Shown here: in pieces, positions 11,480 to 46,301 of the stretch | How positions within the stretch are numbered: the stretch's first letter is position 1 | Layout of the letters: every line of letters begins with the position of its first letter | Source of the DNA: a virus | Lineage: Duplodnaviria > Caudoviricetes | Virus record (IMG/VR): IMGVR_UViG_3300010052_000176 | Coordinates: 1-47,501 of that record | Reading direction: 5' to 3' (one strand) | Length of the DNA stretch: 47,501 bases | Translations under genes and position numbers: made by a program | The notes under the pieces: generated by a model | The model's input: the letters and a program-made list of their open reading frames with translations, nothing else | Database searches by the model: none | Told to the model about the DNA's origin: nothing

Positions 11480-12373
11480 CCACGAATGGCGAGGGACAGC
11501 GAGCGATGGCCAGAAGTCACAGCACGGAACCCCTGCCCGATCTGCGGCGGGAAGACGTGGTGCACCATCGGCCCCCGCCACATCAACTGCCATCGAGCCC
11601 CGTCCGCGAAGGAGCGGGAGACGGGTGCGGGTCTGAGCTGGCTTCACCCCCGCGACAACGCGACAGCGTTACCCCGCGTTGAGCGGGAGAAGAAGGAAAC
11701 CCCGAAGCTCACGACGGCGGAACTGACGGCCCTTGCCAGGAAGATGTTCGATGACAAGCGAGCTGATGCACGACGCGAGTCTGTGGCCCGATCACTGGGT
11801 GTCTCCGTGGCTTCCCTCACCGCTCTGCGCGTCGGCTATGGGGCTGACCGAGCGGGAGAGTATTCGAGCTGGCCGGCCCGCGACTGGCAGGGACACATCG
11901 TCGGAATCGTCCGGCGATACGACGACGGGTCAAAGAAGAGTCTCAAGGGCGGATCAACTGGTCTGTTCTACGAACGGGACTGGCTCAAGCGATCCGGCCC
12001 CGTGCTCATCGTCGAAGGGGGATCAGACACCGCCGCCGCCATCTCTCTCGGTCTACGAGCAATCGGTCGGCCGTCTAACACGGGTCTTGGCCGTGATGGC
12101 GGAATCAAACGGATGCTATCAGGTGCGCGCGCGCGCACCCTTCGAGCGATCGTCATTGCCGAGGCCGATAGCAAACCAGAGAAGCGGGGGCAGGCGCCGG
12201 GGTGTCCTCTCGATTGTCAGGGGTGTCTTACGTGCTTTCCGGGGCAGGCTGGCGCGGAGTTGGTCGCGAAGCAGTTGGGGTGCTCGTGGGTTCTTCCGCC
12301 CGAGGGATGCAAGGACTTCCGGGACGCACTGAACAAGGGGCGGTTGTGGCCGGGACTGATCCAGGCGTTGTGA
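11477..12373 (+). CDS. DNA primase-like protein (Zn-binding domain plus TOPRIM)
   Basis: PCPICGGKTWC; VLIVEGGSDTAAA; C-terminal PEGCKDFRD. Confidence 0.8.
   Translation: MPRMARDSERWPEVTARNPCPICGGKTWCTIGPRHINCHRAPSAKERETGAGLSWLHPRDNATALPRVEREKKETPKLTTAELTALARKMFDDKRADARRESVARSLGVSVASLTALRVGYGADRAGEYSSWPARDWQGHIVGIVRRYDDGSKKSLKGGSTGLFYERDWLKRSGPVLIVEGGSDTAAAISLGLRAIGRPSNTGLGRDGGIKRMLSGARARTLRAIVIAEADSKPEKRGQAPGCPLDCQGCLTCFPGQAGAELVAKQLGCSWVLPPEGCKDFRDALNKGRLWPGLIQAL
12122..12139. repeat. (GC)6 palindrome copy 1, GGT(GC)6ACC, inside primase
   Basis: Perfect 18-bp palindrome. Confidence 0.9.
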
Positions 12374-12411
12374 CTCGGAGCACAGGTAACACCAAGCCCA
12401 GGGAGAGAGCG

Positions 12412-14202
12412 ATGGCAGGACAGGTAGATTTGAGCGTGGCGAAGGTTGGGGATCGGTGCGAGCGGCGGGACGGGAAGGTGGTGCCGTTTGAGGGGCCGAC
12501 GCCACCCGACACGATGTGGACGGAAAACTGGCCCTATATGGCCGGTGGTGACCACTACACGCAGTCCGGCCGGTTCTTCGGTGATTCCGCGGAATGCAAC
12601 GACGACATCGTCCGCATCCTCCCGCGTGAGCAGGCCGCGGAGGCTGGGGAGGGGGTGGCGGATGACACGAAGCTGACCTTGGATCTACTGGCGTCTCAAG
12701 GGGTGTCGGTCGAGAACGGATTCGCCAACTGGCAGGTTTCGTTGAACGAGACACTCTCGTGGTCTCCGGATGATGGCGACGACATTCCGTGGGGCAACGG
12801 GCGAATGACGCTGCTTGTCGATGGGCCTCCCGGGCAGGTCAGTGTCGACCTCGATTGGCCGGAGACTGTCGGGCAGCTGAGGCCGTTCGGGCGGATCTTC
12901 CGCTTTGACGCCCTCCCGAATGAAGTGAACGCCCAACGTGCCGAATGTGCCAGACGAGTTGCCGCGATTGGGTTGGAGTTCTTGGAAGCCAATGGGGAAA
13001 AGCAGTCCCCCACGCCGCCGGACACGGTGGAGACAACCGCTAGCGTCATCAGCGAAACGGCCTCTGGCGTTGGTTCGTCCGACGCTCCGACTGGCGTGGA
13101 CAATCCCCAGTCCCCCGCTCCCCCATCGGCCGCGAACGCCGGGCCGGGGTGTGACCTTGAGAATCTGAAGAACGCCGTGAGCTGGGTGTTGCGAGGCGCT
13201 GAACCTTTGTCGGATATCGCCTGCTTCGTGCCGCGCGACCGCATCCAGATGCTTCAGGCGACCTATCGCGACTTGCCGCTTGTCGACGCCGCCCCGGTCA
13301 ACGCTCCGGAATCGCAGGAGGGGGAGTTGAGTCGCGTCAAACTGCTGATTTCAGAGACCGACGCTCTCGACCCACGGCGAGGGTGGGTGCTGACCGGACC
13401 TGCGGCGGCCACTGCTCGCAGCCTTGCGGTATCTCGGTTCGTCGAGTTGACAGAAGCCGCCCCCGTCGAGCCCGCCAGCCCGGAACCGCAGGGGGTGGAT
13501 GAGTGCAGGCGGCTGCGGCGTGAACTTGACGCTGCTGTGTTCCATCACGAGTGGAGCATGAAGGCGATTGACCTCTCGCTCGGCGAGCCGCGATACGACG
13601 ACGGTAGCCTGCTTGATTGCTTCCTTCGGCGGATTGCAGAACTCCAGCCCTCTCCCCCTCCGTCCCTCCCGGCCAGTGACGCCCCCGCGGCGGTGATCGG
13701 GGGGCCGGGGAGGCACCGGATGGAGTGGGGCGACGTGGTAACGATCGTCGGCCCGGCTGGCGAACAGTGGGTCGGATACTTCGAGGACCGCTACGGCAAC
13801 AAAACGCCGCTGCTCTTCAATCCTGACGGCACACGAGACCATACGTTCATCGCCATTGCTGGTGGTGTCACCGGCCCCTACGTCGAGCCGCCGAAGCCTC
13901 CGGTGCCAGTGCTTGTGATTGAGGAGAAGTCGCGGGTTTACGGATGGGTCGTCGCCTGGTCCATGTTCGACAAGAGCTTTCCAGCCGGCCAATGGCTCGT
14001 GGACGGCGGGCTGTTGGTCCAGCCAATCAAGGCCCTGAAGGGCGACATGGTCGTCGGCTACTGCGACCACGTTGGATTAGACATGCCGAAGATTCGGCTC
14101 TACGTGCACTACGACGGCCCGTGCATGTTCCTTGAGGAAGACTGGCCCCGCGTGCAGGAACTCGTCGCGCAGGTCAACGCTGTGGGAAAGGAGCGAGTGT
14201 GA
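12412..14202 (+). CDS. Long mosaic hypothetical protein
   Basis: GGAGAG RBS; several globular segments separated by Pro/Ala linkers. Confidence 0.65.
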   Translation: MAGQVDLSVAKVGDRCERRDGKVVPFEGPTPPDTMWTENWPYMAGGDHYTQSGRFFGDSAECNDDIVRILPREQAAEAGEGVADDTKLTLDLLASQGVSVENGFANWQVSLNETLSWSPDDGDDIPWGNGRMTLLVDGPPGQVSVDLDWPETVGQLRPFGRIFRFDALPNEVNAQRAECARRVAAIGLEFLEANGEKQSPTPPDTVETTASVISETASGVGSSDAPTGVDNPQSPAPPSAANAGPGCDLENLKNAVSWVLRGAEPLSDIACFVPRDRIQMLQATYRDLPLVDAAPVNAPESQEGELSRVKLLISETDALDPRRGWVLTGPAAATARSLAVSRFVELTEAAPVEPASPEPQGVDECRRLRRELDAAVFHHEWSMKAIDLSLGEPRYDDGSLLDCFLRRIAELQPSPPPSLPASDAPAAVIGGPGRHRMEWGDVVTIVGPAGEQWVGYFEDRYGNKTPLLFNPDGTRDHTFIAIAGGVTGPYVEPPKPPVPVLVIEEKSRVYGWVVAWSMFDKSFPAGQWLVDGGLLVQPIKALKGDMVVGYCDHVGLDMPKIRLYVHYDGPCMFLEEDWPRVQELVAQVNAVGKERV

Positions 14203-14537: not shown

Positions 14538-15200
14538 ATGGAACATCAACCAGGAGAAATGAAGCGAATGGCATCACGAACATTTTCCCAGCGAGTTCGC
14601 CGCAGCCTTGAAGGCTGCAAGTTTAAGCCGAGTGTTCGCCTGTGCCTGTTCGAGGACGGGTACTGCGTAGACGTTTTCGGGTTCCTGATCTCACTGCCGT
14701 TTATGGATCGGTGGTGGCGTCACCCGCATGAAATCATGGAGAGCTGGGGAGTCTATTACGACTCTCGCTCCGTCGTCCTGTGCTGGGGTGATTGGGTGAA
14801 GTTCTTTCACATGCCGTGGGACTGGAAGCACATCAAACACGAAGTGCAGCGCCCGGATGGATCGTGGGTGCCATACGTCGGCTGCTACGAGAAGGACAAG
14901 GAACCTGACGGCCGCTGGCAGGGAACGTATCCGTATCGGTACGTCCTGAAGTCTGGTGAGGTCCAAGAACGCACGGCGACGATCTACGTGGATCGCCGGG
15001 AGTGGCGGTGGAAGTGCCTTCGGTGGTGCCCACTGTTCGCAAGGAAAAGTCTCGGCATTGAGGTTGAGTTCAGCGACGAAGTTGGTGAACGAACCGGATC
15101 GTGGAAGGGCGGAACTATCGGTTGTGGTTGGGATTTACTGAAAGGTGAGACGCCAGAGCAATCGCTGCGGCGAATGGAACGGGATCGCAAATTCAGGTGA
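14538..15200 (+). CDS. Trp-rich hypothetical phage protein
   Basis: GAGGAG RBS, 220 aa. Confidence 0.7.
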   Translation: MEHQPGEMKRMASRTFSQRVRRSLEGCKFKPSVRLCLFEDGYCVDVFGFLISLPFMDRWWRHPHEIMESWGVYYDSRSVVLCWGDWVKFFHMPWDWKHIKHEVQRPDGSWVPYVGCYEKDKEPDGRWQGTYPYRYVLKSGEVQERTATIYVDRREWRWKCLRWCPLFARKSLGIEVEFSDEVGERTGSWKGGTIGCGWDLLKGETPEQSLRRMERDRKFR

Positions 15201-15279: not shown

Positions 15280-15834
15280 ATGGCAAGAATCGAGACCCCT
15301 GAACACATCACCGTGGAATCGTTCATGGTGAAGGCGAACCGCGACTGGGCGACGGTGTTCCTCCGCTACGGCGAAGCAAAAAACATGCAGGGTCACGTGA
15401 TGCACCAGGGGGTGATGTGCATCCACTCTGATTACGGCACGTACGGCTACTGGTGGTCCCACATGGGTAAGCCGCTGCCGGAGTTTCTTTGCGGCATCGA
15501 CACGGGATACCTGCTTTCCAAGATCAGCCGCACAGAGACGCAGTACGACGAGGCGGAGAAGAACCTCAAGCGGGCTGTCGTCGAAGCTCGGAAGAGTGGG
15601 GCGAAGCCTGCGGCATGCCGGAAAGCCTACGACGCGATCACCGATGCGTTCGATGAATACGGCGGCCGTGAAGCCGCGTTCATGCTGTATCAGAACGGGG
15701 CACTGAACGACGTGATTCACGACTGGTGCGAGCTGTTCCCGTCCGACCATCCGCCGGCGGCTCAGCAGTTCGCACAGCGGGTGTGGCCTGAGATCGTCGC
15801 CGCGCTGAAAGAGAAACTTGCGGTGGCAGGCTGA
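15280..15834 (+). CDS. Hypothetical phage protein
   Basis: AAGGAG RBS; SDYGTYGYWW...YLLSKI segment. Confidence 0.7.
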   Translation: MARIETPEHITVESFMVKANRDWATVFLRYGEAKNMQGHVMHQGVMCIHSDYGTYGYWWSHMGKPLPEFLCGIDTGYLLSKISRTETQYDEAEKNLKRAVVEARKSGAKPAACRKAYDAITDAFDEYGGREAAFMLYQNGALNDVIHDWCELFPSDHPPAAQQFAQRVWPEIVAALKEKLAVAG

Positions 15835-15881
15835 CCCCCGCTGACCCCCATCCCGGACCCGAGAGCAGAGGAGGAGGAACG

Positions 15882-16097
15882 ATGCGGTTCATCAAGATGT
15901 TTCGCGAATCGTGGAATGACAGGTGGGTAATCAACGCCCGCGACCAATGCGGGCGTCCGTGGGCTCTCGTGCAGTGGAGGGCAATCCTGGTGTACCGGCT
16001 AATCGTGTTCCCGATTTCATTTCCGCTCTACGCCGTGGGGCTGCTGCTCTGCGTGCTTTCCAACTTCATTGCGTGCGGCAGGTGGGAAGTCCCCTGA
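15882..16097 (+). CDS. Small membrane protein
   Basis: GAGGAGG RBS; hydrophobic C-terminal half. Confidence 0.6.
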   Translation: MRFIKMFRESWNDRWVINARDQCGRPWALVQWRAILVYRLIVFPISFPLYAVGLLLCVLSNFIACGRWEVP

Positions 16098-16146
16098 CCG
16101 GTCTCTGTACACATGGCGTACCAAGTCTTTTGAGGGAGTAACGAAC

Positions 16147-16503
16147 ATGGCTGACGACTGGAAGCCGGATGCACCGATCGCCGAAACCTTTGTCTGGTTT
16201 CACGGGAAATGCTTTCGGATCTACACGTTCGAGCGGAATTCATCGGCGGTCGGGTGCGGTGGGCAGCGATTCCAGGAAACACACGTCCACGAATGGGCTG
16301 ACGGTCAGCGTGGCGAATGGCTGCACCAGCTGCACGGCCGCGGAATTGCCTTCCACTGCATCGTCGCTGCCGAATTCTCCCGCGAGGGCCGGTACGACCA
16401 CGAGGAATACGAAGCCAACAGCTACGAACTCGCACAGAAGGTCTTGAATGACGCGGCGAGAAGGGCGCGAGCCAACGCTGCAACCAACCCCGCAGCCCCC
16501 TGA
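16147..16503 (+). CDS. Hypothetical protein
   Basis: GGGAG RBS. Confidence 0.6.
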   Translation: MADDWKPDAPIAETFVWFHGKCFRIYTFERNSSAVGCGGQRFQETHVHEWADGQRGEWLHQLHGRGIAFHCIVAAEFSREGRYDHEEYEANSYELAQKVLNDAARRARANAATNPAAP

Positions 16504-16562
16504 CGCACCCGTGTCCGTCCTGCCGGTGCCCTGAGTTTCGCGAATTGAGGAGTGGGAGAGAG

Positions 16563-16970
16563 ATGGCGATGGAAGACATGAGAAAAGAGTTGGTTGCGAA
16601 TCGCGACATGCTCATTGAGCTGCGGAACAAACACCTGAGCCACTGCGCGGCGGTTGTCCTCGCGATTGTCCAGAAGCGGATTGAAGCAGCAGATGCAGTG
16701 CTTTTTCGAACGGCAGGTGTCAAGGAATGCTTGACGACTGAAGAGGCGGCAACTGTCAAGGAATCCTTGACAGTTCAGGGGGGCGACTTGTCGCTGGTCC
16801 TCAATGGAGTCGCAATCGGCCTTGAGGCTCTGGATTCGTACAAGGACCCGGCAGATCGCGATTGGGTACTCCAGTCCTGCATCTCGGCGATTCGTTCGGT
16901 TTCTCGGGACCTGAGTCCTGCCACCCCCGCCACAGCGATTACCGAGCCCCCGGAAACCGCAGGGATTTGA
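16563..16970 (+). CDS. Hypothetical protein
   Basis: GGGAG RBS, helical sequence. Confidence 0.6.
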   Translation: MAMEDMRKELVANRDMLIELRNKHLSHCAAVVLAIVQKRIEAADAVLFRTAGVKECLTTEEAATVKESLTVQGGDLSLVLNGVAIGLEALDSYKDPADRDWVLQSCISAIRSVSRDLSPATPATAITEPPETAGI

Positions 16971-17175
16971 GGGGGAGGCTGCCTGAAGTATTGGAACAAG
17001 GCGGATGCGGTCTTTCTTGCATCTCAGCAACGGAAGGGGGAGATCGTCGCGAGATTTGGCGAGCATTCCACGGACCGAATGTTCAGCGCACTGCGGGCGA
17101 TGGAGAACGCACTTTTACTGATCGCTCGGTAGCCCCCCACAACGCCACCCCTGAACCTGATCGAGGAGAGAGAAC

Positions 17176-17562
17176 GTGGAGTTCACCCCAGACCCTTCGG
17201 CGCCACAGCGACCGGCCGGACCTGCGATTCGGGCATTGCGAGAATTGAACGAGCGGTTCCACCCGGCGACATGCGGCGGCAACCGATCCGATGACGCCCA
17301 CAAGCGGTACGCCGAGGAGCACGGCGAATCCGACTACGGCATCTTGGTCAACGGCGTCTGCCCGGTCTGTGGCTGGAAGCAGCCGAAGGACATCGGAACG
17401 CAACTCCACGAGGCGAACCTGAAGTGTCGCAAGTTGACTCTGGCTCTCCAGAGGATCAACAACCTTGAGGCGTCCCCGCCACTATCCACAGACGCGAGTG
17501 TCTTCGCGGCGATGAAGCACATTGCACGGCACGCTTTGGCAGATGCAGGAGTCACCCAATGA
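17176..17562 (+). CDS. Hypothetical Zn-ribbon protein
   Basis: HPATCGG...CPVCGW. Confidence 0.6.
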   Translation: MEFTPDPSAPQRPAGPAIRALRELNERFHPATCGGNRSDDAHKRYAEEHGESDYGILVNGVCPVCGWKQPKDIGTQLHEANLKCRKLTLALQRINNLEASPPLSTDASVFAAMKHIARHALADAGVTQ

Positions 17563-17993
17563 CTGACCCCATCCCCCAGGCGATGCAGGCGGCGGAGAGG
17601 CTGAACAACGTGCCTGTGACGCGAAGCATATTCCCACTGGGCGTTCCAGTGGTGATTGAAGCAATCACAGACTTGGCGTCTGGATGGGACTTCGACGCCC
17701 CAATGCACGTGATGACCCCGTTTCATCGGTACTGCATTGTTGGGTCGATCAGCGACCAAACCCTGGTTGACGAAGTCGAAGAACTGCTCGTCAACCTGTC
17801 GTGCGGCATGGAGATCAGTTCAGACGCCAACACGTGGCCGTACGACGAGGGGCATCTCCTCTCAATGTTTAGCATGGCTAAGCGTGGCAACATCCTCAGC
17901 GATGTTCGCCTCGACCGGGTGGTCGTCACCGTCACCGATTGGGGGGATGCCGATGGTGACGGCAAGTGGACGATCGCCGCCGCTGCCCCGTAG
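17559..17993 (+). CDS. Hypothetical protein
   Basis: ATGA coupling, AGGAG RBS. Confidence 0.6.
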   Translation: MTDPIPQAMQAAERLNNVPVTRSIFPLGVPVVIEAITDLASGWDFDAPMHVMTPFHRYCIVGSISDQTLVDEVEELLVNLSCGMEISSDANTWPYDEGHLLSMFSMAKRGNILSDVRLDRVVVTVTDWGDADGDGKWTIAAAAP

Positions 17994-18015
17994 GCGTCAT
18001 CTACAAAGTCCGACC

Positions 18016-18411
18016 ATGCAAACCACTACTGAGACCTGCCAGCTCTTCCGGACGTTGTGGCTCAACGATCTGGAGTTCAGGGCACATGCGATGCGAAACG
18101 GAGGATTGCGGGCGGCGTCACAGGGGATGCAGAGCCATCACATTTGGGGCGGGAAGACGCGGCTGAATCGAAAGACAAACCTCATCCGGCTCTGTGCAAC
18201 GGTCCACGACTGGATGCACATGCGGCCGGTGGAGGGCCGGATTGCGTGTTGCTGGAAGCAGAAGGAACTGGGCGTCCTTGATTGGGACGTCCTGACGGAG
18301 TGTGCGGGCCGCCCGGCGAGAGCCTGGGTGGAGGTTCAACAGGCCAGCGGCATTTACGCCGCCATGCAAAGGGAGTTGCTGAATGAAGTGTCCACCACCC
18401 AGCGCAAGTGA
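18016..18411 (+). CDS. HNH-like protein
   Basis: QSHHIWGG...NLIRLCATVHDWMH. Confidence 0.6.
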   Translation: MQTTTETCQLFRTLWLNDLEFRAHAMRNGGLRAASQGMQSHHIWGGKTRLNRKTNLIRLCATVHDWMHMRPVEGRIACCWKQKELGVLDWDVLTECAGRPARAWVEVQQASGIYAAMQRELLNEVSTTQRK

Positions 18412-18916
18412 TCCAACCGCGTGGGCTGAATACCTCAGCCGCTTCACGGTTGCGGCCGACTCGCCATACGGTCTTCCCGAGCCGTGCAGGCTTTGGACGC
18501 GAAGCAAGTCGGGAATGGGTTACGGGAATCTCGGCTACAAGGGGCGAACCCAGAAGGTCCATCGGCTCGTGTACGAGGTGATGGTCGGGCCGATCCCCAG
18601 CGCCATGCTGGTTTGCCACCGGTGTGACAGGCCAGCGTGCTGTGAGCCGACACACCTGTTCCTTGGAACGTCACAGGACAATGCCACTGACTGTTCCCAA
18701 AAGGGGCGCATCGTGAGTCGCGGGCGGCGTGCTGTGGGTGAGGCAGTCGCCAGGGCCAAGTTGAAGGACTCGAACATTATCCGCATCCGCGAGATGCACA
18801 AAGAGGGGCTATCGCACAGAGATATCGCAACGTGGTTCGGAGTCAGTCACCGAGCCATTGGCGACATTCTGACTGGAAAGACTTGGCGTCACGTCACGGA
18901 AGGACAGGCAGCATGA
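18383..18916 (+). CDS. HNH homing-type endonuclease with C-terminal HTH
   Basis: CRLWT..GYG..KVHRLVY..VCHRCDRPACCEPTHLFLGT.QDN..D; SHRDIATWFGVS. Confidence 0.9.
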   Translation: MKCPPPSASDPTAWAEYLSRFTVAADSPYGLPEPCRLWTRSKSGMGYGNLGYKGRTQKVHRLVYEVMVGPIPSAMLVCHRCDRPACCEPTHLFLGTSQDNATDCSQKGRIVSRGRRAVGEAVARAKLKDSNIIRIREMHKEGLSHRDIATWFGVSHRAIGDILTGKTWRHVTEGQAA

Positions 18917-19266
18917 TTGAACTCGAACTCCCGTACCCACCATCCATCAACCGCTACTGGCGGCACAACCGCGGCCGAACCCATCTCTCGAAAGAGGGAC
19001 GTGACTACCAGAAGGGCGTGGCAACTGCGCGCGCGCGCAGTTCAATCGTGACCATGTCCGAGAACGTGGAACTGATGATCGACCTGAACCCGCCCGACCG
19101 GCGGCGCAGGGACGTGGACAATGTTTTGAAAGCCCTCTTAGACGGGCTTCAGAAAGGGGGTGTTCTTCAGGATGACAGTCAGGTGAAGAAGCTGACGATT
19201 GAGATGCACGAACCGGTGGCCGGCGGCAGATGCCGGGTGTCGATCGTGCCGAGATTGGCGGTGTGA
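18913..19266 (+). CDS. rusA: RusA-family Holliday junction resolvase
   Basis: LPYPPSINRYWR; PPDRRRRDVDNVLKALLDGL..DDSQV. Confidence 0.93.
   Translation: MIELELPYPPSINRYWRHNRGRTHLSKEGRDYQKGVATARARSSIVTMSENVELMIDLNPPDRRRRDVDNVLKALLDGLQKGGVLQDDSQVKKLTIEMHEPVAGGRCRVSIVPRLAV
19023..19042. repeat. (GC)6 palindrome copy 2, variant AACT(GC)6AGTT, inside rusA
   Basis: Perfect 20-bp palindrome with different but still symmetric flanks. Confidence 0.85.
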
Positions 19267-19305
19267 GTTCGGGCCGCGTGAGTCCGACAAAGTTCACTGA
19301 TCGAA

Positions 19306-19314
19306 CGATAACGG
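19306..19314 (+). promoter_or_regulatory. CGATAACGG candidate late promoter
   Basis: Intergenic, 9 nt before ATG 19324. Confidence 0.65.
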
Positions 19315-19323
19315 AGTCGAGCC

Positions 19324-19497
19324 ATGAACGGCTTGGAAGAGATGCTGAGGCGGCTTCTGGAGTGCCACGGAAAGGCGATGCCTGAGAACGTGGCGGATGT
19401 GGAAACCGCCCTGAGCATGGTCATTGAAGACCGCTACGAAGAAGGAGTTCGCGAGGGAGTGTCGGCAAAACCCACCCTCGCGGAACTCGCAGCCTAG
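19324..19497 (+). CDS. Small hypothetical protein (MNGLEEMLRRLLECHG...)
   Basis: 57 aa ORF with GGAG RBS. Confidence 0.5.
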   Translation: MNGLEEMLRRLLECHGKAMPENVADVETALSMVIEDRYEEGVREGVSAKPTLAELAA

Positions 19498-19586
19498 CCC
19501 GGCATGACGCCGGAGACATTCAGCACACGACGCGGAACGGAATCCGCGTCCGCTGAGACTAAACGAATTCCCGAGGGAGCGGAAGA

Positions 19587-19853
19587 ATGTTCGGTCTGGT
19601 GCGGAAGTCGAAATACGACGCACTGGCACGACGGTGCGATGAGGCCGACGCACAGCTTTCCCAGATCATGTTCCTCTGCCATCAGGTCGGGTGCGGTGGC
19701 GGTGAGATGAAGTCGCCGTATCGGTTGGTGAAGGAGCTGATTGACCGGGTTTACGTCGCGGCCTCAACGGTCGCGGCTGCTGAGAAGATTGACCAATTCA
19801 ATCGTGGCATGCTCGCCGAGCGAGAAGCCGCGAAGTCGCGTCACGCTGCGTAG
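19587..19853 (+). CDS. Hypothetical protein
   Basis: GGGAG RBS; MFGLVRKSKYD start. Confidence 0.6.
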   Translation: MFGLVRKSKYDALARRCDEADAQLSQIMFLCHQVGCGGGEMKSPYRLVKELIDRVYVAASTVAAAEKIDQFNRGMLAEREAAKSRHAA

Positions 19854-19868
19854 TTGCAGAAGTCCCAC

Positions 19869-19957
19869 GGAAGGGCCGGCAGTAGAAAGAGCCAAGCAGT
19901 CTCGAAAACTGTGACCGCGCCTCGTCGCGGTGGTGGGTTTGACTCCCACCCTTTCCG
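19869..19957 (+). tRNA. tRNA-Ser(CGA), atypical D and T loops, CCA not encoded
   Basis: Acceptor GGAAGGG/CCTTTCC, discriminator G, anticodon arm GCAGT-CTCGAAA-ACTGT, long variable arm ACCGCG/CGCGGT, T arm GTGGG-TTTGACT-CCCAC. Confidence 0.8.
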
Positions 19958-19986
19958 CTTTGTTTCGCTCACGTCAAGGAAGATCC

Positions 19987-21327
19987 ATGCCCGAAGTCCA
20001 GGCTACCGCCGCGCCCATTGAAGACACCCCTGCCGTTGACGCCGTCGCGAAACCGGAAGTTGCGACGGCCGAGGCCCTGACTGCCACGGTGGATGCTCCG
20101 ACCGCTCCGGTTGCGGTGGAAACTGTCGCCGTGGCCGACCCGGAGTCCGCCGTTGAAGTCGCCGTTCCGGTGGCTGAGGCGGCTCCGGTCGATCCATCCC
20201 CGCCGGAGCTTGCACCAGCTCCGGCCGAACCGCCGGTGTCCTCTCCTGCACCGGCGGTTCCTGAATCACTGGAAACCCTGAGCGAGGGTACGCCAACGAT
20301 CGCCGAGCTTGCGGGACATCCGGTCATGGCCACGACCGCGCCCCCCGCCTCCGCATCTGAGGCAGAAATCGCTACGCCGGGTGTCATTGCGACCCCGGCT
20401 GAAATCATCGGGGCCGTTGACACTGCGGATGAACAATCGGCAGGGAACGTCACGGCCCCTCTTTCACTCGCCACGGAAGGAGAGCCCGTTGCTGTCGCCA
20501 TCCCTGATGAACGTCCTGTCGAACCTGAACCCGCCCGAGCCGAAGAAGCACTCCCTGCGGTCGCTGAAGGAGGCGATGGGGGATCGGCCGATCCGGTGGA
20601 CGAACCCGCCGCCGCACCTGAACAACCGGCCGAGCCTGTCGCCGCCGGAAGTGATCCCGCCGCACGAGTGGAATCCGGCGTGGGGACCGATGCCGTGGCA
20701 GTTGCAGAACTGGCCGCCGCTGAAGACGGGGACGCCAATCCCGAACCCGTTCACAGTGACGTGCCTGTGACCGAGACACTCCCCGCCGAAGCGATCCCGG
20801 TTGAAGAGCCGGTCAAAGAAGACGCCGAGGCAGCCGCACCTGCGGAAGTGGTGGACGCTCCGGCGTCGGCCCCTGTCGGGGATCAGCCCTCGCCGGAACC
20901 GGAGGCTGATGCGCAGCTCCCCGAAGCAACGGCGGACGCCGCACCCATCAATACTGACAGCGTCCCGCCCGCTTCGGAAACGCCGGGGGAGACCCCGGCC
21001 GAACAACCCTCCGCCCTGGAGAAGGTCGCCGACGATCTCGCGACCAACTACGGACTGGAGAAGGCGTCGTGGCTCGTGGCCCTGAAGTTCGCCGCGAAGT
21101 CCCTGAACGCGGAGGGCGATGTCCTTGCCGCGATCAAGCAGGACAACGCTGACGGCCGCGAGAAGATGAGCCGCGCCTGCCGCCGGGCGACCAATGAGGC
21201 CTTCCCGGATTTCCCCAACGATGAGCGGGTGAGCATCGCCCGCGAACTGGCGGCGATCCTGAAGGAAATGGCGGACAAGGCCGATAGCGACCACGTACAG
21301 GCCGCCATCGCCGAAGCCCTCTCATGA
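19987..21327 (+). CDS. Acidic Ala/Pro/Glu-rich low-complexity protein with helical C-terminal domain
   Basis: AAGGA RBS; about 360 aa of A/P/E/V-rich sequence followed by a globular tail. Confidence 0.75.
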   Translation: MPEVQATAAPIEDTPAVDAVAKPEVATAEALTATVDAPTAPVAVETVAVADPESAVEVAVPVAEAAPVDPSPPELAPAPAEPPVSSPAPAVPESLETLSEGTPTIAELAGHPVMATTAPPASASEAEIATPGVIATPAEIIGAVDTADEQSAGNVTAPLSLATEGEPVAVAIPDERPVEPEPARAEEALPAVAEGGDGGSADPVDEPAAAPEQPAEPVAAGSDPAARVESGVGTDAVAVAELAAAEDGDANPEPVHSDVPVTETLPAEAIPVEEPVKEDAEAAAPAEVVDAPASAPVGDQPSPEPEADAQLPEATADAAPINTDSVPPASETPGETPAEQPSALEKVADDLATNYGLEKASWLVALKFAAKSLNAEGDVLAAIKQDNADGREKMSRACRRATNEAFPDFPNDERVSIARELAAILKEMADKADSDHVQAAIAEALS

Positions 21328-21956
21328 CCCCTCTGACCTACCGAGACTACGCAGCGGTCGCGCAGGATTGCGACATCGCCCTCTGGCGACCGCTGCCGTT
21401 CTCTTGGAAGTCTCCGAAGTCGTGGTTGGCGTGGGGAAGGTACATCGACCGCTACACCGGGAACTGCGGTTACTCGCATGTCACCGGAGTTCTTCACTGG
21501 CCGAATGTCGATCGGTGGATGAGCTGTGGTTATGAGGAGCGGAAGGGTGGATTCGCGGAACCGCTGGATGCGGTCGTGGAAAAGCACGGCGGGCGGATTG
21601 ATGTGTTCCGCGTGAAGGCGTCGGAGTGGGAGGCTGCCGAGGCGTCCCGCGTGTGTGTGTCGCGTCGGCTGGGGCAGGATCTTGGGGGGCGGTATGCGTG
21701 GTCGAACATTCGGCTCATTGCATCGCCGTTGCTTCCGATCATCGGTCTGTTCACGCCGCGTGGTGAGCATGAGGAATTGGTGGCCAAGGCGGCGGGGTCG
21801 CGCCGCGAGGGAATCTGTTCGCAGCATGTGGCCCGGTCGTTTCTCGCGTGCGGGATTCGGCTGTGCAAGAAGCCGTTGGATCGCACGACCCCGAATGACC
21901 TGTGGCTGACGAGCGCCACGGAATACGTCTGCACTCTTGTCAGGGATGACACATGA
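21324..21956 (+). CDS. Permuted papain-like NlpC/P60 amidase (YaeF/YiiX-like)
   Basis: DIALW, YSHV (His first), ICSQHVA (Cys later), TPNDL. Confidence 0.8.
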   Translation: MTPLTYRDYAAVAQDCDIALWRPLPFSWKSPKSWLAWGRYIDRYTGNCGYSHVTGVLHWPNVDRWMSCGYEERKGGFAEPLDAVVEKHGGRIDVFRVKASEWEAAEASRVCVSRRLGQDLGGRYAWSNIRLIASPLLPIIGLFTPRGEHEELVAKAAGSRREGICSQHVARSFLACGIRLCKKPLDRTTPNDLWLTSATEYVCTLVRDDT

Positions 21957-23560
21957 CGATGGCCCTCAGTTATCACCCCCAGGGACCGCGGGAAGCCCTC
22001 GCGCGTTTGGCCCTGGTTGCCGCTGCTCTCTGTTCAGTGGTGACGTTCGCCGCGCGGCATGCGCGGGCGGACAACCCTCGCGGGACGACCTGTCAGGATT
22101 GCGTCGTCGTGATCGGCGGATGCTCCGGCGTCTGTGTCTCGCGTGAAGGTCATATCCTCACGGCCGGGCACTGCAAGACGCAGGACGTGGAAGAGATCAC
22201 GTGGCCGGACGGGCGGAAGGTTCAGGCCCACAAGCTCTACGATAACGGCAAGGCGGAAGGCTGCGTCGTCTTCGACTGCGACGGGGAGGGATACCCGTTC
22301 ATTCCGGTTTCGCAAACGGTCCCTCAGTTGGGGGATGTGGTCTACTCGGGCGGATACCCGGCGCGGAATGGCGTCCGGGCGTTTGAGCAGAGCCAGGGGA
22401 AGGTTCTCGGCGGAGCGATCCGCAACGAAGGGAGCGATGAGTTCCTTTGCAACATGACCACGGACATGGGGCTTGCTGGTGGCTGGTCCGGGGGTCCGCT
22501 GATTAACGCGCGCAGTGAAGTCATCGGCGTCTGTAACGGGTTCGAGTGGCAAGAGTCACTCACGGGCCAGAGGGTCAGTCCCACGGTCTCCCGGTTCGTC
22601 GCGTGGTCGACGGTGCGAGAAGCCTACGAAACGGCGGTGACACCTTCGGGTGAGTTCACCGTCTATCTCCGTCACGACTGCGCGCCGTGCGATCGGTTCA
22701 AGGCGGACTGCGATTCCTTCGATCAGCGGCTCCTGCGCGGCGTGTTCAACGGAGTTCCTTTCCGGGCGTTGATGACGACCGGAAGCGGCCCGCGATTCTT
22801 CTGCAATGGGGCATCGTCAGAGGGGTACAGGGGCCGGGCCGAACTCAATGCGTGGCTCGGCCAGAACGTCCGCCGGAGTCGCCGCAACGATCCGGTGTCC
22901 CCCTCGCCGCTTCAGCCGTACACGCCACCGATCAATCCCTATGTCGAAGACTGCCCGGGTGGTGTCTGCCCGGCCGATGGTCCGCAACGCTACGTGCGCG
23001 CGCCGAAGACTCCGCAGATGCAGGCGGAGGAAATCAAGCTCGTGGTGTGCGTCAACCTGGGTTACTCCACTGGGGTTGAGGCTCGGAAGTGGGCGGCCAG
23101 CATCACGCAGTCCAAGCTCAACGATCTCTGTGCGTCACAGGGTTTGAATGCGTCGACCTACATCGTGTCTCGGGATCTCAACCCGGAGTCGTATGACCGC
23201 TTCGCGAAGTCGGTCGGGGTGGATGTGAAGTTCGCCGTGGTCGCGTTCATTCCGGAAAGGGATGATGCGTCCGGTCTCATTCGCGGGCGGATCACCACGC
23301 AGATTGAACGCATCGTCAAGGACAAGCTGGACGGGAAACCGCTGGCCCTGGTCTTCGAGCGACAAGACCCAAAGAAGTTCGATGAGGGCGTGGCGGCGCT
23401 GCTGCTGTTCTCGCCGGATGAGAGTGATCCCCAAGCCCCGTTCACGTTCACGGGGACGGTTCTGTGGGGAATCATGCAGGACAAGTCGAGGTTGCTGGAT
23501 GGCATCGTGAACCGCCTGAAGTGGCTCGCGGGGAAGCTCATCGGAAAGGTTCAATCATGA
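21953..23560 (+). CDS. Secreted trypsin-like serine protease with thioredoxin-like CxxC segment
   Basis: Signal/TM helix; CSGVCV..ILTAGHC; GWSGGPL; CAPCDRFK; CPGGVCP linker. Confidence 0.85.
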   Translation: MTMALSYHPQGPREALARLALVAAALCSVVTFAARHARADNPRGTTCQDCVVVIGGCSGVCVSREGHILTAGHCKTQDVEEITWPDGRKVQAHKLYDNGKAEGCVVFDCDGEGYPFIPVSQTVPQLGDVVYSGGYPARNGVRAFEQSQGKVLGGAIRNEGSDEFLCNMTTDMGLAGGWSGGPLINARSEVIGVCNGFEWQESLTGQRVSPTVSRFVAWSTVREAYETAVTPSGEFTVYLRHDCAPCDRFKADCDSFDQRLLRGVFNGVPFRALMTTGSGPRFFCNGASSEGYRGRAELNAWLGQNVRRSRRNDPVSPSPLQPYTPPINPYVEDCPGGVCPADGPQRYVRAPKTPQMQAEEIKLVVCVNLGYSTGVEARKWAASITQSKLNDLCASQGLNASTYIVSRDLNPESYDRFAKSVGVDVKFAVVAFIPERDDASGLIRGRITTQIERIVKDKLDGKPLALVFERQDPKKFDEGVAALLLFSPDESDPQAPFTFTGTVLWGIMQDKSRLLDGIVNRLKWLAGKLIGKVQS

Positions 23561-23823
23561 TCTCGGGATTCATTGCGGCGATCGGTCTCACGAATCTGTT
23601 GGCGGGTCCGGCCATTGGCCTGGTCTTCAGTGCCATCCGGATCTTCAGTGCGGGTCGGCAAGCGGTCCAGGTCGGGGCAGTCGTCGCCAAGGCGGTGGGC
23701 GCTGCGACGGAGAAGACGGTGTCGAGCACGGCCGTCGCGCCGCGTGACACGCCTGTCGAGCTACCGAAGGCGGTGGCCAAGCCTGCTCCGGTTGTGGTTG
23801 TTGCGCCGACTCAGGCGGCCTGA
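23557..23823 (+). CDS. Small membrane protein (holin candidate)
   Basis: ATGA coupling; hydrophobic N-terminus. Confidence 0.5.
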   Translation: MISGFIAAIGLTNLLAGPAIGLVFSAIRIFSAGRQAVQVGAVVAKAVGAATEKTVSSTAVAPRDTPVELPKAVAKPAPVVVVAPTQAA

Positions 23824-23824
23824 A

Positions 23825-23833
23825 CGATAACGG
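23825..23833 (+). promoter_or_regulatory. CGATAACGG candidate late promoter
   Basis: Intergenic, upstream of the DUF4406 cluster. Confidence 0.6.
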
Positions 23834-23836
23834 TGT

Positions 23837-23861
23837 GCCCCGCAGACGCGGGGCTTTCTTT
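23837..23861 (+). terminator. Intrinsic terminator-like hairpin
   Basis: GCCCCGC-AGAC-GCGGGGC followed by TTTCTTT. Confidence 0.6.
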
Positions 23862-23878
23862 CTCAAGGAGGGGACTTG

Positions 23879-24346: not shown

Positions 24347-24699
24347 GGACAACGTATCTCGCCGGGCCCATGCGTTCTTATCCGCTTTTCAACTTCCCCG
24401 CGTTCGATGCGGCGGCGGCTGAACTCCGGAAGGCCGGCCACTTCGTTCTGAACCCGGCGGAGCATGACCGCCACGACCTTGGCTTGCGGCCCGAGGATTT
24501 CCCCACGGGGCAGTTCTCGGACGCGGGCTGGAATGACGAACGGGTTGCCCACTTCATGCGGCAGGCGTTCGCGTGGGACATCGCGGCCATCTGCCGGGCC
24601 ACGACGATCGCGTTGCTGCCTGGGTGGGAGAAGTCCGCTGGCGTGGCCGTGGAACTCGGGGCCGCCCGGCTCCTCAAACTGGAGGTAATCGAACTGTGA
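24343..24699 (+). CDS. DUF4406 protein, copy 2
   Basis: YLAGPMRSYPLFNFPAF..VLNPAE..LLPGWEKSAGVAVE. Confidence 0.85.
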   Translation: MRTTYLAGPMRSYPLFNFPAFDAAAAELRKAGHFVLNPAEHDRHDLGLRPEDFPTGQFSDAGWNDERVAHFMRQAFAWDIAAICRATTIALLPGWEKSAGVAVELGAARLLKLEVIEL

Positions 24700-25127: not shown

Positions 25128-25130
25128 CGG
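25122..25130 (+). promoter_or_regulatory. CGATAACGG candidate late promoter (contains the upstream stop codon)
   Basis: 20 nt before ATG 25151. Confidence 0.55.
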
Positions 25131-33480: not shown

Positions 33481-34809
33481 ATGCCCAAAGGCTCGCCCGC
33501 AAAGGCGGCCATCGCCTCCCACATCCAGGGGGAACCGCAAGGGATTGCGGACCTCGTGGACGCGATGCGCACCGACTATCAGGTGACGCTGGGCGATCTC
33601 GCGATTAAGGCCAACGCCCAAACCGCCAAGGTCTCATTCACCCCGGCGACCAACGACCCGCGAGAGGCGGCGCTGGCGTCCGAACTCGAAAGCCTCTGGT
33701 GGCAGAAGTTCGGGACGATGCTGGAGTCTCAGGCCTATGGGCGTGTGGCCTATGAGAAGGTCATCGGCTACGACCCGGAACACTCCATTAACGTCGTCTC
33801 CCTCAACGAACTGCCGCACCGTCACACGGAAATGCGGCTGACTCTCGATGGGGACTTCGACGGGATCGACGTCCACGAGAAGGGCCGAAAGAAGCCGATT
33901 CCCCTCCCCCCGGAATACTCGTGGTGGCTGGCGATCGATGCGACCCCCACGCAGCCACACGGCAAGAGCCGGTATCTCGGGGCGCCGCAGCAGTTGTGGA
34001 AGGACAAGCGGCACATCACCTGTTTGCTCGGGACGTTCGTCAAGCGGTTCGTTCTCGGGCTGGGGAAGGTCCACGGCCCCGAGAGCTACCCGAACCCCGA
34101 TGATCCGAGCAACCCGTTTGACGGCGCGGCGGTGTTCGCTTCGGCCAGCACGTCAGTTGAGAACGGGGGACACCTGTACCTGTCGAACAACCGGATTCCC
34201 ACGGCGGACGGCAACCCCGGCCCGTATGAAATCGACGTGGAGAGCTTCGACGTCACCGTAACGGACGCCAAGCCGATCACTGACGTCATCCAGCACTACG
34301 ACATGGCCCAGCTCCTCGCCCGAGGGATCGCGCCGAAGCTGGTGATGGAGAACACGGCCGGTTCTCTCGCCCTGGTCAGCCAGCAAATGCTGATCTTCAT
34401 GGCGGTGGTGGACGAACTGGTGGGACAGCCCGCGAACTCCTTCCAGAAATACGTGGTCGACCCGGCGGTCAAACTGAATGACCCCTCCGGCAAGTGGAAA
34501 ATCACGGTCAACTTCACGCCGTTGACCCAGCGGCCGGACGATCTCGCGGAAACCCTGGTGCGCGCGTGGCTCACTTCGGAAAGCCTCTCTCCCCTGATCC
34601 TCTCGGGGGCGGTGGACGTGGTTCCCATCCTCGAATCGGTGGGCCTGACCATTTCCGAGGGGGCGGCCCAGAAGCTCCAGCGGTGGATTGATGCGAACGC
34701 GGCGGCCGAGCAGGTGCGCGCGCGCGCACCTGAACCGATCGCGATGGACCTGAAGATCCCGATGATTCAGGAATACGACGACTTCCTGTCGAAAGTCTGG
34801 AATGCCTGA
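33481..34809 (+). CDS. Portal protein (Mu gp29/DUF935-like)
   Basis: AYGRVAYEKV, PHGKS, FVKRF, GSLAL motifs; position before gpF-like gene. Confidence 0.75.
   Translation: MPKGSPAKAAIASHIQGEPQGIADLVDAMRTDYQVTLGDLAIKANAQTAKVSFTPATNDPREAALASELESLWWQKFGTMLESQAYGRVAYEKVIGYDPEHSINVVSLNELPHRHTEMRLTLDGDFDGIDVHEKGRKKPIPLPPEYSWWLAIDATPTQPHGKSRYLGAPQQLWKDKRHITCLLGTFVKRFVLGLGKVHGPESYPNPDDPSNPFDGAAVFASASTSVENGGHLYLSNNRIPTADGNPGPYEIDVESFDVTVTDAKPITDVIQHYDMAQLLARGIAPKLVMENTAGSLALVSQQMLIFMAVVDELVGQPANSFQKYVVDPAVKLNDPSGKWKITVNFTPLTQRPDDLAETLVRAWLTSESLSPLILSGAVDVVPILESVGLTISEGAAQKLQRWIDANAAAEQVRARAPEPIAMDLKIPMIQEYDDFLSKVWNA
34711..34732. repeat. (GC)6 palindrome copy 4, CAGGT(GC)6ACCTG, inside portal
   Basis: Perfect 22-bp palindrome. 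Confidence 0.9.
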
Positions 34810-38779: not shown

Positions 38780-39232
38780 ATGCCTTTCTCCCCCGCCAAC
38801 ACCTATGCCTCGATCGAGGAGCTAAAACTCCGCGTGTCGCGGCATGGGTACAAGTGGGCGGCGGACGTCGACGACGGGGACGGGTTTGTCCCCGAGTCCT
38901 CCCCGGAACAGAACTACCCCGAGGAATCCCTCGAATACGCCAACACCCTGATCGACGAAGCCCTGGTCTCCCTCAACGTGAGTGTCACCCCGCGCCCGGC
39001 CAACGACTGGTGCAGGGATCGGGCGATTGATCTCGCGGTGTGGCGGCTGTTCTCGCTTGGCGGGCGGAATGTCCCGGCCCCGTTTCAGGCGGCCTATGAC
39101 ATGGCGATGGACAAGCTCATGGAAGTGCGCGCGGGGACGCTGCGGATTCCGGGGCTGGAAGACCCCACCCTGAGCAACGGCCGGCGGTCGGGCCTCCCGG
39201 TGCGGATGATTAACCTCCGGCGGTGTCACTGA
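38780..39232 (+). CDS. Head-tail connector (Mu gp36/DUF1320-like)
   Basis: YASIEEL; ANTLID; DLAVWRL; YDMAMDKLMEVRAGTLRI. Confidence 0.8.
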   Translation: MPFSPANTYASIEELKLRVSRHGYKWAADVDDGDGFVPESSPEQNYPEESLEYANTLIDEALVSLNVSVTPRPANDWCRDRAIDLAVWRLFSLGGRNVPAPFQAAYDMAMDKLMEVRAGTLRIPGLEDPTLSNGRRSGLPVRMINLRRCH

Positions 39233-39747
39233 TGAACATTTTCACCGCCGCCCGCGAAGCCGTCTGGGCCGCCATCGACAATTACGGGCCGCTCCAGGGG
39301 AAGTTCAAATCCAAGTTCCGGTATTCAGGTGCGCGCGCGCGCACCTCGCCCGAGCGGCCGGACTTCGTTCGGGAACCGACTTCCACGAGTGAATGCCCGG
39401 CGATCCGGTTGCGGCCGATCGGACTCACGACCCAATGGCAGACGAACCAGCGGCAGGAGATGCCTTTCGTTCTCGAATGGAAGGTGTGGACCAAGAACCT
39501 CGACGCCTGCGAAATCGAGGAACTGGCGGCACTGGTGATCGACGCGATCCACGGCGGCAAGGCGGCCGGGCAGGTGCAGAGCTGCATCCGGGATGCGATC
39601 AACCAGAAGTTCCCGGTGTTCACGCCCATCACGTTCGGGCACGAAGAAATCGGCGACGGTCCCGATAACGCACAGGGCGTCCTCACTGCGACGGGCGGCC
39701 TTCTCCTCCCCCTGACCTATGCGCCGGTGAACTACAGTGTCCAGTGA
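39232..39747 (+). CDS. Putative tail terminator/completion protein
   Basis: Position and size; CPAIRL motif. Confidence 0.5.
   Translation: MNIFTAAREAVWAAIDNYGPLQGKFKSKFRYSGARARTSPERPDFVREPTSTSECPAIRLRPIGLTTQWQTNQRQEMPFVLEWKVWTKNLDACEIEELAALVIDAIHGGKAAGQVQSCIRDAINQKFPVFTPITFGHEEIGDGPDNAQGVLTATGGLLLPLTYAPVNYSVQ
39327..39346. repeat. (GC)6 palindrome copy 5, AGGT(GC)6ACCT
   Basis: Perfect 20-bp palindrome. Confidence 0.9.
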
Positions 39748-44897: not shown

Positions 44898-45670
44898 TGC
44901 TGTGGCCGATCGAGAACGCCGTTCACTCCCGGGACGTCGAACAGCGGTTGATGCGGTCGCTCGGGCAGGTGTTCCGGCTGGAGTCGGACCTGCGCGGGTT
45001 CGGCTTTGCCACGGGCCAAGCTCCTGTTGATCCGGATGTGGCCATTCCCGAATCCCCCCCGGTTCCGTGGAAGAAGAAGGTTCTGCGTCTGCTGTCGACG
45101 ACGGCCACGCTGACCTATGTGAACTTCGACGCCCTGCTGGCGGCCGAGGCGGTTGGCGGAGTGGATACGGTCTACTCCGGCAACATCAACGATTATTCGT
45201 TCGTCTTCCTGCACGCGGCCAGCACGGTGTGGGCGGACATCATGGCCGCGCCGAGTTGGGTCGGGCGAATCATCGCGTCCGGCGAAAACCCTATCGGGTC
45301 GACGTCCACGGCGGCCCGGACTCAGTGCCGGACGATCGCGACTGACTGCGGTCTGACCAATGACCTGACGGACGCTTACGACGCGGGGTCAACGCTGATC
45401 TCCGCAATCACGGCCGATCCGCTCACGGCTGGCGTGAGTTCGATCCGGCATGCCGGAACCGGGGCGTTCCTCACCGCAGGCGGGTTTCCAGTTCTCTGGT
45501 CGACCATCAACGACACGACGCCGGCCCCGAACGTCAAGCCCGCCTGTGTGCATGCGAGGTTCAACGACACGTCCGTGGTGCTGATTCAGGATCTCAACTT
45601 CTTCGGCGATGCGATCTGGAATTCCGGGAATGCCCAGTTCGTCACCAACTGCCTGAACGTCTACCCATGA
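44897..45670 (+). CDS. Putative tail fibre/receptor-binding protein
   Basis: TAGTG coupling; N-terminal coiled segment plus globular domain. Confidence 0.5.
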   Translation: MLWPIENAVHSRDVEQRLMRSLGQVFRLESDLRGFGFATGQAPVDPDVAIPESPPVPWKKKVLRLLSTTATLTYVNFDALLAAEAVGGVDTVYSGNINDYSFVFLHAASTVWADIMAAPSWVGRIIASGENPIGSTSTAARTQCRTIATDCGLTNDLTDAYDAGSTLISAITADPLTAGVSSIRHAGTGAFLTAGGFPVLWSTINDTTPAPNVKPACVHARFNDTSVVLIQDLNFFGDAIWNSGNAQFVTNCLNVYP

Positions 45671-45834
45671 ACATCGCGAACTTCCCGCCGATCGACACCC
45701 CCGCATGGAAGCGGATGGTGGAGCAACGCATCGTCGAACTCGAATCCAAAATCTTTCGACTGGAAGCCGAAGTCTCCTACCTGCGCAATCAGGTGGGCAA
45801 TCTCCCCGTGAACCCCGACGTGACCGTTCCATGA
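45667..45834 (+). CDS. 55-aa paralog of the N-terminus of the preceding protein
   Basis: PID..RMVEQR-8-FRLE-13-PVNPDV versus PIE..RDVEQR-8-FRLE-13-PVDPDV. Confidence 0.65.
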   Translation: MNIANFPPIDTPAWKRMVEQRIVELESKIFRLEAEVSYLRNQVGNLPVNPDVTVP

Positions 45835-46301
45835 GTTGGCGCAAGCCCGGCCGCCCCTGCCTCCACTACAGCACCTCCCAAAACGCCTGTCGGCTCGCTG
45901 GCGCTCTTTGCGGGGATATTCCGGCCCCATGCACCGAAAGCGACTGCGCGGCCTGCTACAGCCTCTCAGAGCCCACAATGGCGGCCCCCAACGAAGTCGT
46001 GGCCCGGCTCGTCACGGACTGGAAGGCCAAGCGGCAGGTGCGCGCGCGCGCACCTGAACTGCCCGCGCCGCCGGCCCCTGGAATCGCGGCGTACACCGAG
46101 GCCGATTTCCCGTGCGTCCACCGGGGGGAGAAAACCGGGGAGCATCAGTGCACGGAATGCGACGGGGGAAAGCTCCATATCCTGTATGACTGCGGACTGA
46201 AGGGGCGGGAATGCACGGTGCTGGCGGCGCCGAAGGCCCGGGGGAAGGACGGGCAGCACGCTCTCTGCTGCCTGGCGTGTGACGAACGGCAGGCGGCCTG
46301 A
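45831..46301 (+). CDS. Cys-rich hypothetical protein
   Basis: ATGA coupling; two Cys clusters. Confidence 0.65.
   Translation: MSWRKPGRPCLHYSTSQNACRLAGALCGDIPAPCTESDCAACYSLSEPTMAAPNEVVARLVTDWKAKRQVRARAPELPAPPAPGIAAYTEADFPCVHRGEKTGEHQCTECDGGKLHILYDCGLKGRECTVLAAPKARGKDGQHALCCLACDERQAA
46035..46056. repeat. (GC)6 palindrome copy 6, CAGGT(GC)6ACCTG
   Basis: Perfect 22-bp palindrome. Confidence 0.9.

Follow-up and report, generated by a model that had tools for sequence, protein, structure and literature searches.

Six perfect palindromes, each built on exactly six GC repeats and each lying in a different gene, are spread along the phage record IMGVR_UViG_3300010052_000176 (Duplodnaviria; Caudoviricetes), whose complete stretch of 47,501 nucleotides was analyzed here and is referred to as the window. 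These palindromes are real, are selected at the DNA level, are specific to the phage, and are conserved in place. They are probably read by some protein of the phage itself. As judged from sequence comparison, an orphan ParB-like protein encoded at 8061-8957 is the slightly favored reader, and the palindromes would then be loading sites of the kind used by KorB.

Results

Six palindromes with a (GC)6 core

The first site, GGT(GC)6ACC (18 bp; 12122-12139), lies in the length-variable loop of the primase gene (11486-12373), and the second, AACT(GC)6AGTT (20 bp; 19023-19042), lies in a RusA-like resolvase gene (18913-19266). The third, AGGT(GC)6ACCT (20 bp; 28460-28479), is in terS, 20 bases before the stop codon, and the fourth, CAGGT(GC)6ACCTG (22 bp; 34711-34732), is in the portal gene, within the variable tail at its C-terminal end. 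The fifth, AGGT(GC)6ACCT (20 bp; 39327-39346), is near the start of a gene (39223-39747) that had no PHROG or Pfam match and whose name, tail completion, comes from a preliminary description of this DNA. The sixth, CAGGT(GC)6ACCTG (22 bp; 46035-46056), is in a Cys-rich gene that probably starts at 45978; the integrase gene follows after 280 bases. No strand is assigned to any of the six. They are the only runs of five or more GC repeats in the window, and their centers are 6902, 9437, 6252, 4615, and 6709 bases apart.

The six coordinates, lengths, and approximate spacings of the preliminary description were all reproduced, as was its finding that every site is within predicted coding sequence and that two reading phases are used. 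Its summary of the set as six perfect AGGT(GC)6ACCT palindromes is exact for four sites; the primase copy reads AGGT(GC)6ACCC from 12121, and the rusA copy has, as that description had also said, different yet symmetric flanks (AACT(GC)6AGTT at 19023). Beyond the arms, the flanks are one-sided in the coding direction: C precedes AGGT at five of five sites, and (C/G)AA(C/T) follows the right arm at four of six, always in the coding direction, which is a faint bias. Four copies of a half site, AGGTGCGCGC, had also been reported, at 5046 (5046-5055, + strand), 11386, 28000, and 29679. All four are present and on the coding strand, but they are weak, as 7 of 1000 codon shuffles contained at least four (the mean was 1.5, and one site lies outside the shuffled genes), and they may be by-products of codon use.

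The probability that the six palindromes arose by chance, by selection on the ARAR peptides that they encode, or as an assembly artifact is negligible. The 20-mer AGGT(GC)6ACCT gave no match in 100 dinucleotide shuffles, and T(GC)6A appeared in 1000 synonymous-codon shuffles at a mean of 0.008 per genome, with a maximum of 1. By synonymous codon choice alone, the joint probability of the palindromes is 4e-26 for the window and 6e-23 for the related phage G001, described below. Contigs of run X1, which may be the source sample, span all six sites with the letters inside them unchanged, and contigs of run X2, a synthetic metagenome, span five, with the same letters, and reach the sixth to 11 bases past the site. 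Runs X3 and X4 hold relatives near 90 to 95%.

The recurrence of ARAR-like peptides is what speaks for protein selection: QVRARAP- or VRARE-like peptides are found in the portal tails of 5 of 22 homologues. The other 17, however, lack them, and in the primase loop RAR-, VRAH-, or LRAE-type peptides are present in 12 of 120 homologues, the two closest included, and absent from 108. Along the portal tails of P0019 and P0021-P0023, which are known from proteins alone, QVRARAP/QVRAREP shifts its position, and G001 encodes an equally perfect palindrome through other peptides (STARARG and PRARAV). The argument of the preliminary description that protein selection is insufficient is thus borne out by the joint codon probability, the two reading phases, and the absence of the peptides from most homologues; the comparison of orthologues that it had proposed showed the peptide moving between alignment columns. 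The shuffles and the agreement of independent contigs point the same way, and the codon test together with G001 refutes an origin by chance, protein selection, or artifact. Back-translated primase loops were rejected as evidence, since long possible palindromes arise in them from degeneracy alone, and a search with GGTNCGCGCGCGCGNACC for the palindrome predicted from QVRAREP returned 12 single matches, none of them in relatives.

Palindromes in related phages

A relative with a GC core, G001 (67% portal identity), carries five (C/T)ACC(GC)6GGT(G/A) sites in 25.6 kb; in a scan of IMG/VR its 18-mer was found in G001 and at one occurrence elsewhere, and no more. Three of the five sites lie in orthologues of the portal, 39223, and Cys-rich genes. 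The portal tail holds TCTACC(GC)6GGTAGA in the same tail as site 4. At the place of site 5, G001 has TACC(GC)6GGTA with its (GC)6 in exact register with the window, the arms having gone from AGGT/ACCT to TACC/GGTA with all four arm pairs changed on both sides, and the place matching site 6 is occupied by GCACC(GC)6GGTGC. In the terS frame, the G001 site is at the opposite end from site 3 of the window. The G001 arms form two classes, of three and two sites, which are never mixed. In the pair count for the row slid by -2, 16 of 16 cells were paired and three pairs were changed on both sides, a comparison of two sequences that allows no statistic. In the window and G001 together, none of the 11 sites departs from (GC)6 in its core, while the arms vary between and within phages and are nearly always symmetric.

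A more distant phage, G002 (40% portal identity), has 14 copies of CCGCGCGG in 37 kb, of which 12 are CTCCGCGCGGAG. Half of its sites are intergenic, and one CTCCGCGCGGAG occupies the primase loop that contains site 1 in the window. The outer half sites of G002 combine independently, as for the site of a dimer, and the core is only (GC)2. Through the series of the window, G001, and G002, a set of sites embedded in coding sequence changes its arms in concert and stays in place. In G002, a tape-measure-like gene (L238, 10622-15747) stands far from the tail genes; beyond it come a gap of 800 bases with four sites and then genes for tRNA-Leu and integrase. The record may be rearranged. Seven other portal loci of 31 to 42% identity (L226, L227, and L230-L234) were scanned over up to 21 kb and had no enriched palindrome, and structural genes are therefore insufficient for the palindromes; L228 and L229, which belonged to a separate scan, likewise had none.

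The wider family was surveyed through the primase, for which there were 41 loci. Eighteen records were fetched whole and, with the window and G002, made a set of 20, in which the slot was the position up to about 2 kb ahead of the helicase gene and counted as filled if it had a gene for a ParB-like or similar predicted DNA-binding protein (the sequence of G001 ends before this position). Strong dispersed palindromes (p<1e-8) were found in 11 of 15 slot-positive records and 0 of 5 slot-negative records (Fisher, 0.008, uncorrected for kinship); at a threshold of 1e-6, the counts were 12 of 15 and 1 of 5 (Fisher, 0.03). The slot-negative records, none with a strong motif, were G416, G422, G443, G444, and G440, of which G440 has a completeness of 41% and G443 contains other ParB_N genes; absence of the slot gene is not certain, because the profile at first missed the gene of G427. 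Under a Markov null, 10 simulations of G002, G420, G433, and G416 gave best p values of 1e-3 to 1e-4, and six simulations of the window gave values down to 4e-10, because order-5 models inherit its GC runs.

The palindromes themselves differ from phage to phage. TGAC-N5-GTCA occurs in G418 (14 copies), G420 (29), G421 (11), G423 (21), and G425 (6), and loosely in G424 (12); GTCTC-N6-GAGAC occurs in G433 (13 copies), GTGCAATATTGCAC in G427 (10), and TCCACAATTGTGGA in G430 (7). A table of motifs by genomes over 28 records is near-diagonal, each phage or clade having its own palindrome, and the motifs of the other family members are AT-rich or gapped and mostly not alternating GC. Between sister phages in a terminase-portal-capsid tree, G423, which has the ParB gene, carries 21 TGAC-N5-GTCA sites, versus 6 in G422, in which none was found. 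Sites also lie inside the slot gene itself in G427 (2 of 10), G430 (1 of 7), and G423 (1 of 21). Decay of orthologous TGAC sites in ParB-less phages was discarded as a line of evidence, turnover being too fast to show it. GCAGG-N7-CCTGC in G416 (p 1e-7) was not counted, as it is tRNA T-arm-like by eye; four of its five copies (12463, 32026, 32290, 55448, and 56249) have this appearance. G421 contains an open reading frame about 5,170 codons long (15633-31139) with an internal ParB_N-like stretch.

The host is probably a planctomycete. This is suggested by the DUF1580 family encoded in G001 and by matches of the primase profile in 9 of 401 Planctomycetota genomes, a search that covered Planctomycetota and no other phyla; DUF1580 is biased towards planctomycetes. 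The portal profile had no match in the same 401 genomes, and a search with the portal alone returned no locus and no INPHARED record.

The motif might also be a repeat of the host chromosome, or the site of a host protein adopted by the prophage, but the motif was not abundant in any genome searched (the host's own chromosome was not among them) and related phages each have a different one, which makes such an origin highly improbable. The 18-mer GGT(GC)6ACC, with five copies in the 47.5 kb of the window, was found at 95 loci in 185,579 species genomes, each on a different contig and one of them with two matches. In IMG/VR, the 20-mer had no match, and the core 14-mer had at least 119 scattered loci, from 39 of the 64 parts of the database, the sole repeated contig among the matches listed being a 2.5-Mb record with three copies. 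Y(GC)6R reached at most about 40 per Mb in the 401 Planctomycetota genomes, similar to a reversed control, and CTCCGCGCGGAG never exceeded about 11 per Mb across 301 planctomycete genomes, versus 325 per Mb in G002. No strong motif was found in seven stretches from five of the nine primase-positive Planctomycetota genomes. G095 and G214, neighbors of T(GC)6A, were rejected as being at background level. Several 16-bp palindromes with a (CG)n core occur in four small, mutually similar viral contigs (L257, L258, L262, and L263), which have no gene in common with the window.

Candidate readers of the sites

The orphan ParB-like protein (8061-8957, + strand) is encoded between recT and the helicase gene. 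It matches PF02195 (ParB_N) above the cutoff and has a GHRR motif, a predicted helix-turn-helix at about residues 149-180, and C-terminal helices, and its structural model (mean predicted local distance difference test score, 72) matches ParB, Noc, and KorB chains. None of the 57 open reading frames had a ParA family match, and no ParA-type motif (KGGxGK[ST]) was found in six-frame open reading frames of at least 60 amino acids, in agreement with the preliminary description of a ParB-like protein lacking ParA. Compared with a ParABS system, the window thus has the ParB with its CTPase domain and helix-turn-helix and no ParA ATPase gene was found in it, and its sites lie 4.6 to 9.4 kb apart rather than clustered like parS near parAB or the origin. 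No KorA-like clamp-locking partner emerged when the open reading frames were scanned generally with PHROG and Pfam, although no search was aimed at one. The corresponding slot of G002 is filled by a ParB-like gene (phrog_1033, E 1.9e-7).

Loading of this protein at the palindromes had been proposed in the preliminary description, and it agrees with selection at the DNA level, phage specificity, dispersal, a ParB fold without ParA, and the tie between slot gene and motif in the primase family. Several observations weigh against it. No (GC)6 lies in or beside the window parB gene, the nearest site being 3.2 kb away. The phages with the closest ParB proteins (G003-G009; near-whole records, 33 to 42% identity) have no run of five or more GC repeats. 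In seven of eight homologous parB loci (L217-L224) an AATT-centered palindrome is present instead; among G003-G009, a strong dispersed motif occurs only in G003 and is unlike its parB-internal palindrome, the AATT type has two copies each in G004 and G005, and G006-G009 have no dispersed motif. The ParB-like proteins of the window and G002 gave no significant HHalign match and belong to different subfamilies. In the survey, both the threshold for a strong motif and the 18 records were chosen after partial scans, and 4 of the 15 slot-positive records (G434, G438, G426, and G442, the slot of the last being assigned by position and a weak PHROG match) have no strong motif. In addition, the slot proteins of G433 (DUF3102), G430, and G424 accompany strong motifs with no ParB_N detected, and G424 keeps its 12 loose TGAC sites without the ParB of its clade.

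The AATT-centered palindromes, 14 to 30 bp long, lie in the parB linker between the CTPase domain and the helix-turn-helix, and the window has a decayed one, GCCCAAATTTAACC (8479-8492; no strand assigned), in the same linker. They might serve as a parS-like site or as an origin. Decay of the internal copy may go back to a change of specificity in favor of the GC sites, or the two may have no connection. In G004, the palindrome within parB, AGGTAAATTTACCT, shares its four-base arms, AGGT/ACCT, with the window sites, a weak match of four bases among seven comparisons that could be due to chance. G003 carries six TTCCC-N4-GGGAA sites (724, 15710, 28953, 36990, 37581, and 38302), three of them near parB. 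Slot proteins in which ParB_N was not detected are encoded at 6871-7527 of L360 (G430), 7018-7842 of L346 (G424), 12093-12890 of L365 (G438), and 8160-9152 of L343 (G433), and in three of these four the gene itself contains a TGT(C/T)-N10-(A/G)ACA palindrome.

Since a GC core and the position of one site are common to the window and G002, whose ParB subfamilies differ, a shared reader elsewhere would fit. One candidate is another phage protein, such as the product of a small divergent gene of unrecognized family in repressor position (782-1060), which would read the sites as stoperators and block transcription of the prophage. We consider this unlikely. In its favor, an integrase gene is present, the phage proteins are also recorded on a contig of 233 kb, a comparable small divergent gene with a leader is seen by eye in G001, and stoperators are sites for a repressor that are distributed along a phage genome (PMC9283540, in the text accessible). 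However, the gene had no Pfam, PHROG, or confident Atlas match, and BLAST clusters gave no small DNA-binding gene common to the window and G002. The divergent control region has its own palindromes and no (GC)6 site nearby, so that the same site is not found at a repressor-controlled promoter. Stoperators are, moreover, asymmetric and oriented in the account given by PMC4351075, in its accessible part, whereas the window sites are palindromic.

Alternatively, the sites might act by shape: a Z-prone (GC)6 combined with a cruciform or hairpin would take up supercoiling or be bound by a structure-specific protein. A turn of Z-DNA is 12 bp, so that (GC)6 makes up one turn. The constancy of the core in the 11 sites of the window and G001 and the symmetric variation of their arms are in line with this, and the palindrome folded as a hairpin in nine of nine stretches tested. 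A hairpin is trivial for any palindrome, however, and the z-scores were weak (-0.1 to -2.5); the reading frame by itself restricts the run to multiples of three repeats, and one fixed arm sequence per phage is left unexplained. The sequence thus permits the Z-DNA or cruciform structures raised in the preliminary description within the window, but they do not explain the wider family, because its palindromes are mostly not alternating GC but AT-rich or gapped, and G002 has mixed half sites around a core of only (GC)2. We regard action by shape alone as quite unlikely.

Other features of the phage genome

The window is a complete virus record with genes for RecE/RecT, the ParB-like protein, helicase, primase, RusA, terminase, portal, capsid, and integrase. 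Its proteins are also recorded on a 233-kb and a 47.7-kb contig, as would be expected of a prophage and a free form of the phage. The divergent control region (782-1290) contains the palindromes GTCATTAATGAC (1121) and GTCATTAATGAAC (1152); between 1060 and 1285, these other palindromes were found in place of a (GC)6 site. A leader with a terminator (1225-1264) lies by gene 782-1060, and a similar leader is present in G001 (L236, 3624-4100). Two genes with sigma-70 region 2 lie side by side at 3827-4444 and 4733-5515, and sigma-like genes occur in G002 too. The gene at 14538-15200 has a strong match to Acb3 (PF25187, E 2e-44), an inhibitor of the cyclic-oligonucleotide-based antiphage signaling system (CBASS). 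At 23876-26505, two nucleoside 2-deoxyribosyltransferase-like genes, a dATP/dGTP pyrophosphohydrolase-like gene, and a metallophosphoesterase gene follow one another, a possible nucleotide-modifying or counter-defense cluster.

Discussion

According to the slightly favored reading, in which the orphan ParB-like protein is the reader, the palindromes would have been placed in tolerant spots of six genes as DNA-level signals. A ParB dimer would bind each of them, close upon cytidine triphosphate (CTP), and slide. Spreading would cover the 5 to 9 kb between sites, and six sites would therefore reach most of the genome. The action may belong to lytic growth, as gene control or the organization of replicating DNA rather than partition; this is suggested by the position of parB in a recombination-replication cluster. 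A more elaborate form of the model, which we consider decidedly improbable, has the clamp on a two-part site whose four-base arms give the phage its identity and whose (GC)6 core flips from B to Z or cruciform, so that loading is gated by supercoiling. Such a gate might act on clamp loading along the genome, for example, at excision or at the start of replication.

Orphan phage ParB-like genes are common and have no DNA target in the literature searched, and palindromes of the type found in Cluster O mycobacteriophages are unexplained. The phages described here offer matched sets of proteins and sites, with at least seven different palindromes accompanying different slot proteins and a sister pair with and without ParB, and both questions are therefore directly testable by cross-binding. 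The (GC)6 sites are, in addition, candidates of a kind rarely met in nature, protein sites made of Z-prone DNA. Searches on planctomycete prophage palindromes, orphan phage ParB, phage DUF3102, and phage Z-DNA found no description of this system (most subscription papers lay outside the search), and for ParB-like proteins with palindromic repeats in phages, Cluster O alone was on topic by title. Orphan proteins with the ParB-CTPase fold are common on mobile elements, with about 1% of homologues on prophages (PMC12704722, accessible part); in the main text of that survey, the string "palindrom" is absent and no DNA sites are assigned.

The nearest parallel in mechanism would be KorB of plasmid RK2, a ParB-family CTPase clamp that loads with CTP at palindromic OB operators, silences at distances above 1 kb, and controls genes in addition to partition, as given in the accessible text of PMC11790492. 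Of the features of such regulators (KorB, VirB, and BisD), the window has a ParB-family protein, whose model matches KorB chains, and dispersed palindromes on its own element; co-occurrence in relatives speaks for a link between the two, and the nearest homologues speak against it. Unlike KorB, it is an integrating phage in which no ParA and no KorA-like partner were identified, and its sites are 18 to 22 bp long, have an alternating GC core, and all lie in coding sequence.

The IR sites of prophage N15 are reportedly dispersed along its genome. N15 encodes SopAB and has four IR centromere sites (PMC7205306, accessible part). It resembles the window in pairing a phage ParB-type protein with several palindromic sites and differs in being a plasmid prophage with SopA, whereas the window has an integrase and no ParA motif was found in it.

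Cluster O mycobacteriophages carry more than 30 copies of a 17-bp palindrome with a 3-bp variable center, about a third of them in genes, and have no integrase; within the accessible text of PMC4351075, the palindromes are predicted to bind a dimer, their function is given as unknown, and the ParB-like protein (Corndog gp90) is deemed unlikely to serve genome stability. In both cases one palindrome recurs across a phage genome that has a ParB-like gene, but the window has six copies, an invariant (GC)6 center, and an integrase. The stoperators of Cluster A phages are many phage-specific sites over a temperate genome, asymmetric, oriented with transcription, and bound by a monomeric repressor (PMC9283540 and PMC6550527, accessible parts). 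The window sites are likewise phage specific and spread over a temperate genome, but they are symmetric. Within dispersed operator-type systems, what is new here is a fixed (GC)6 core with swappable arms.

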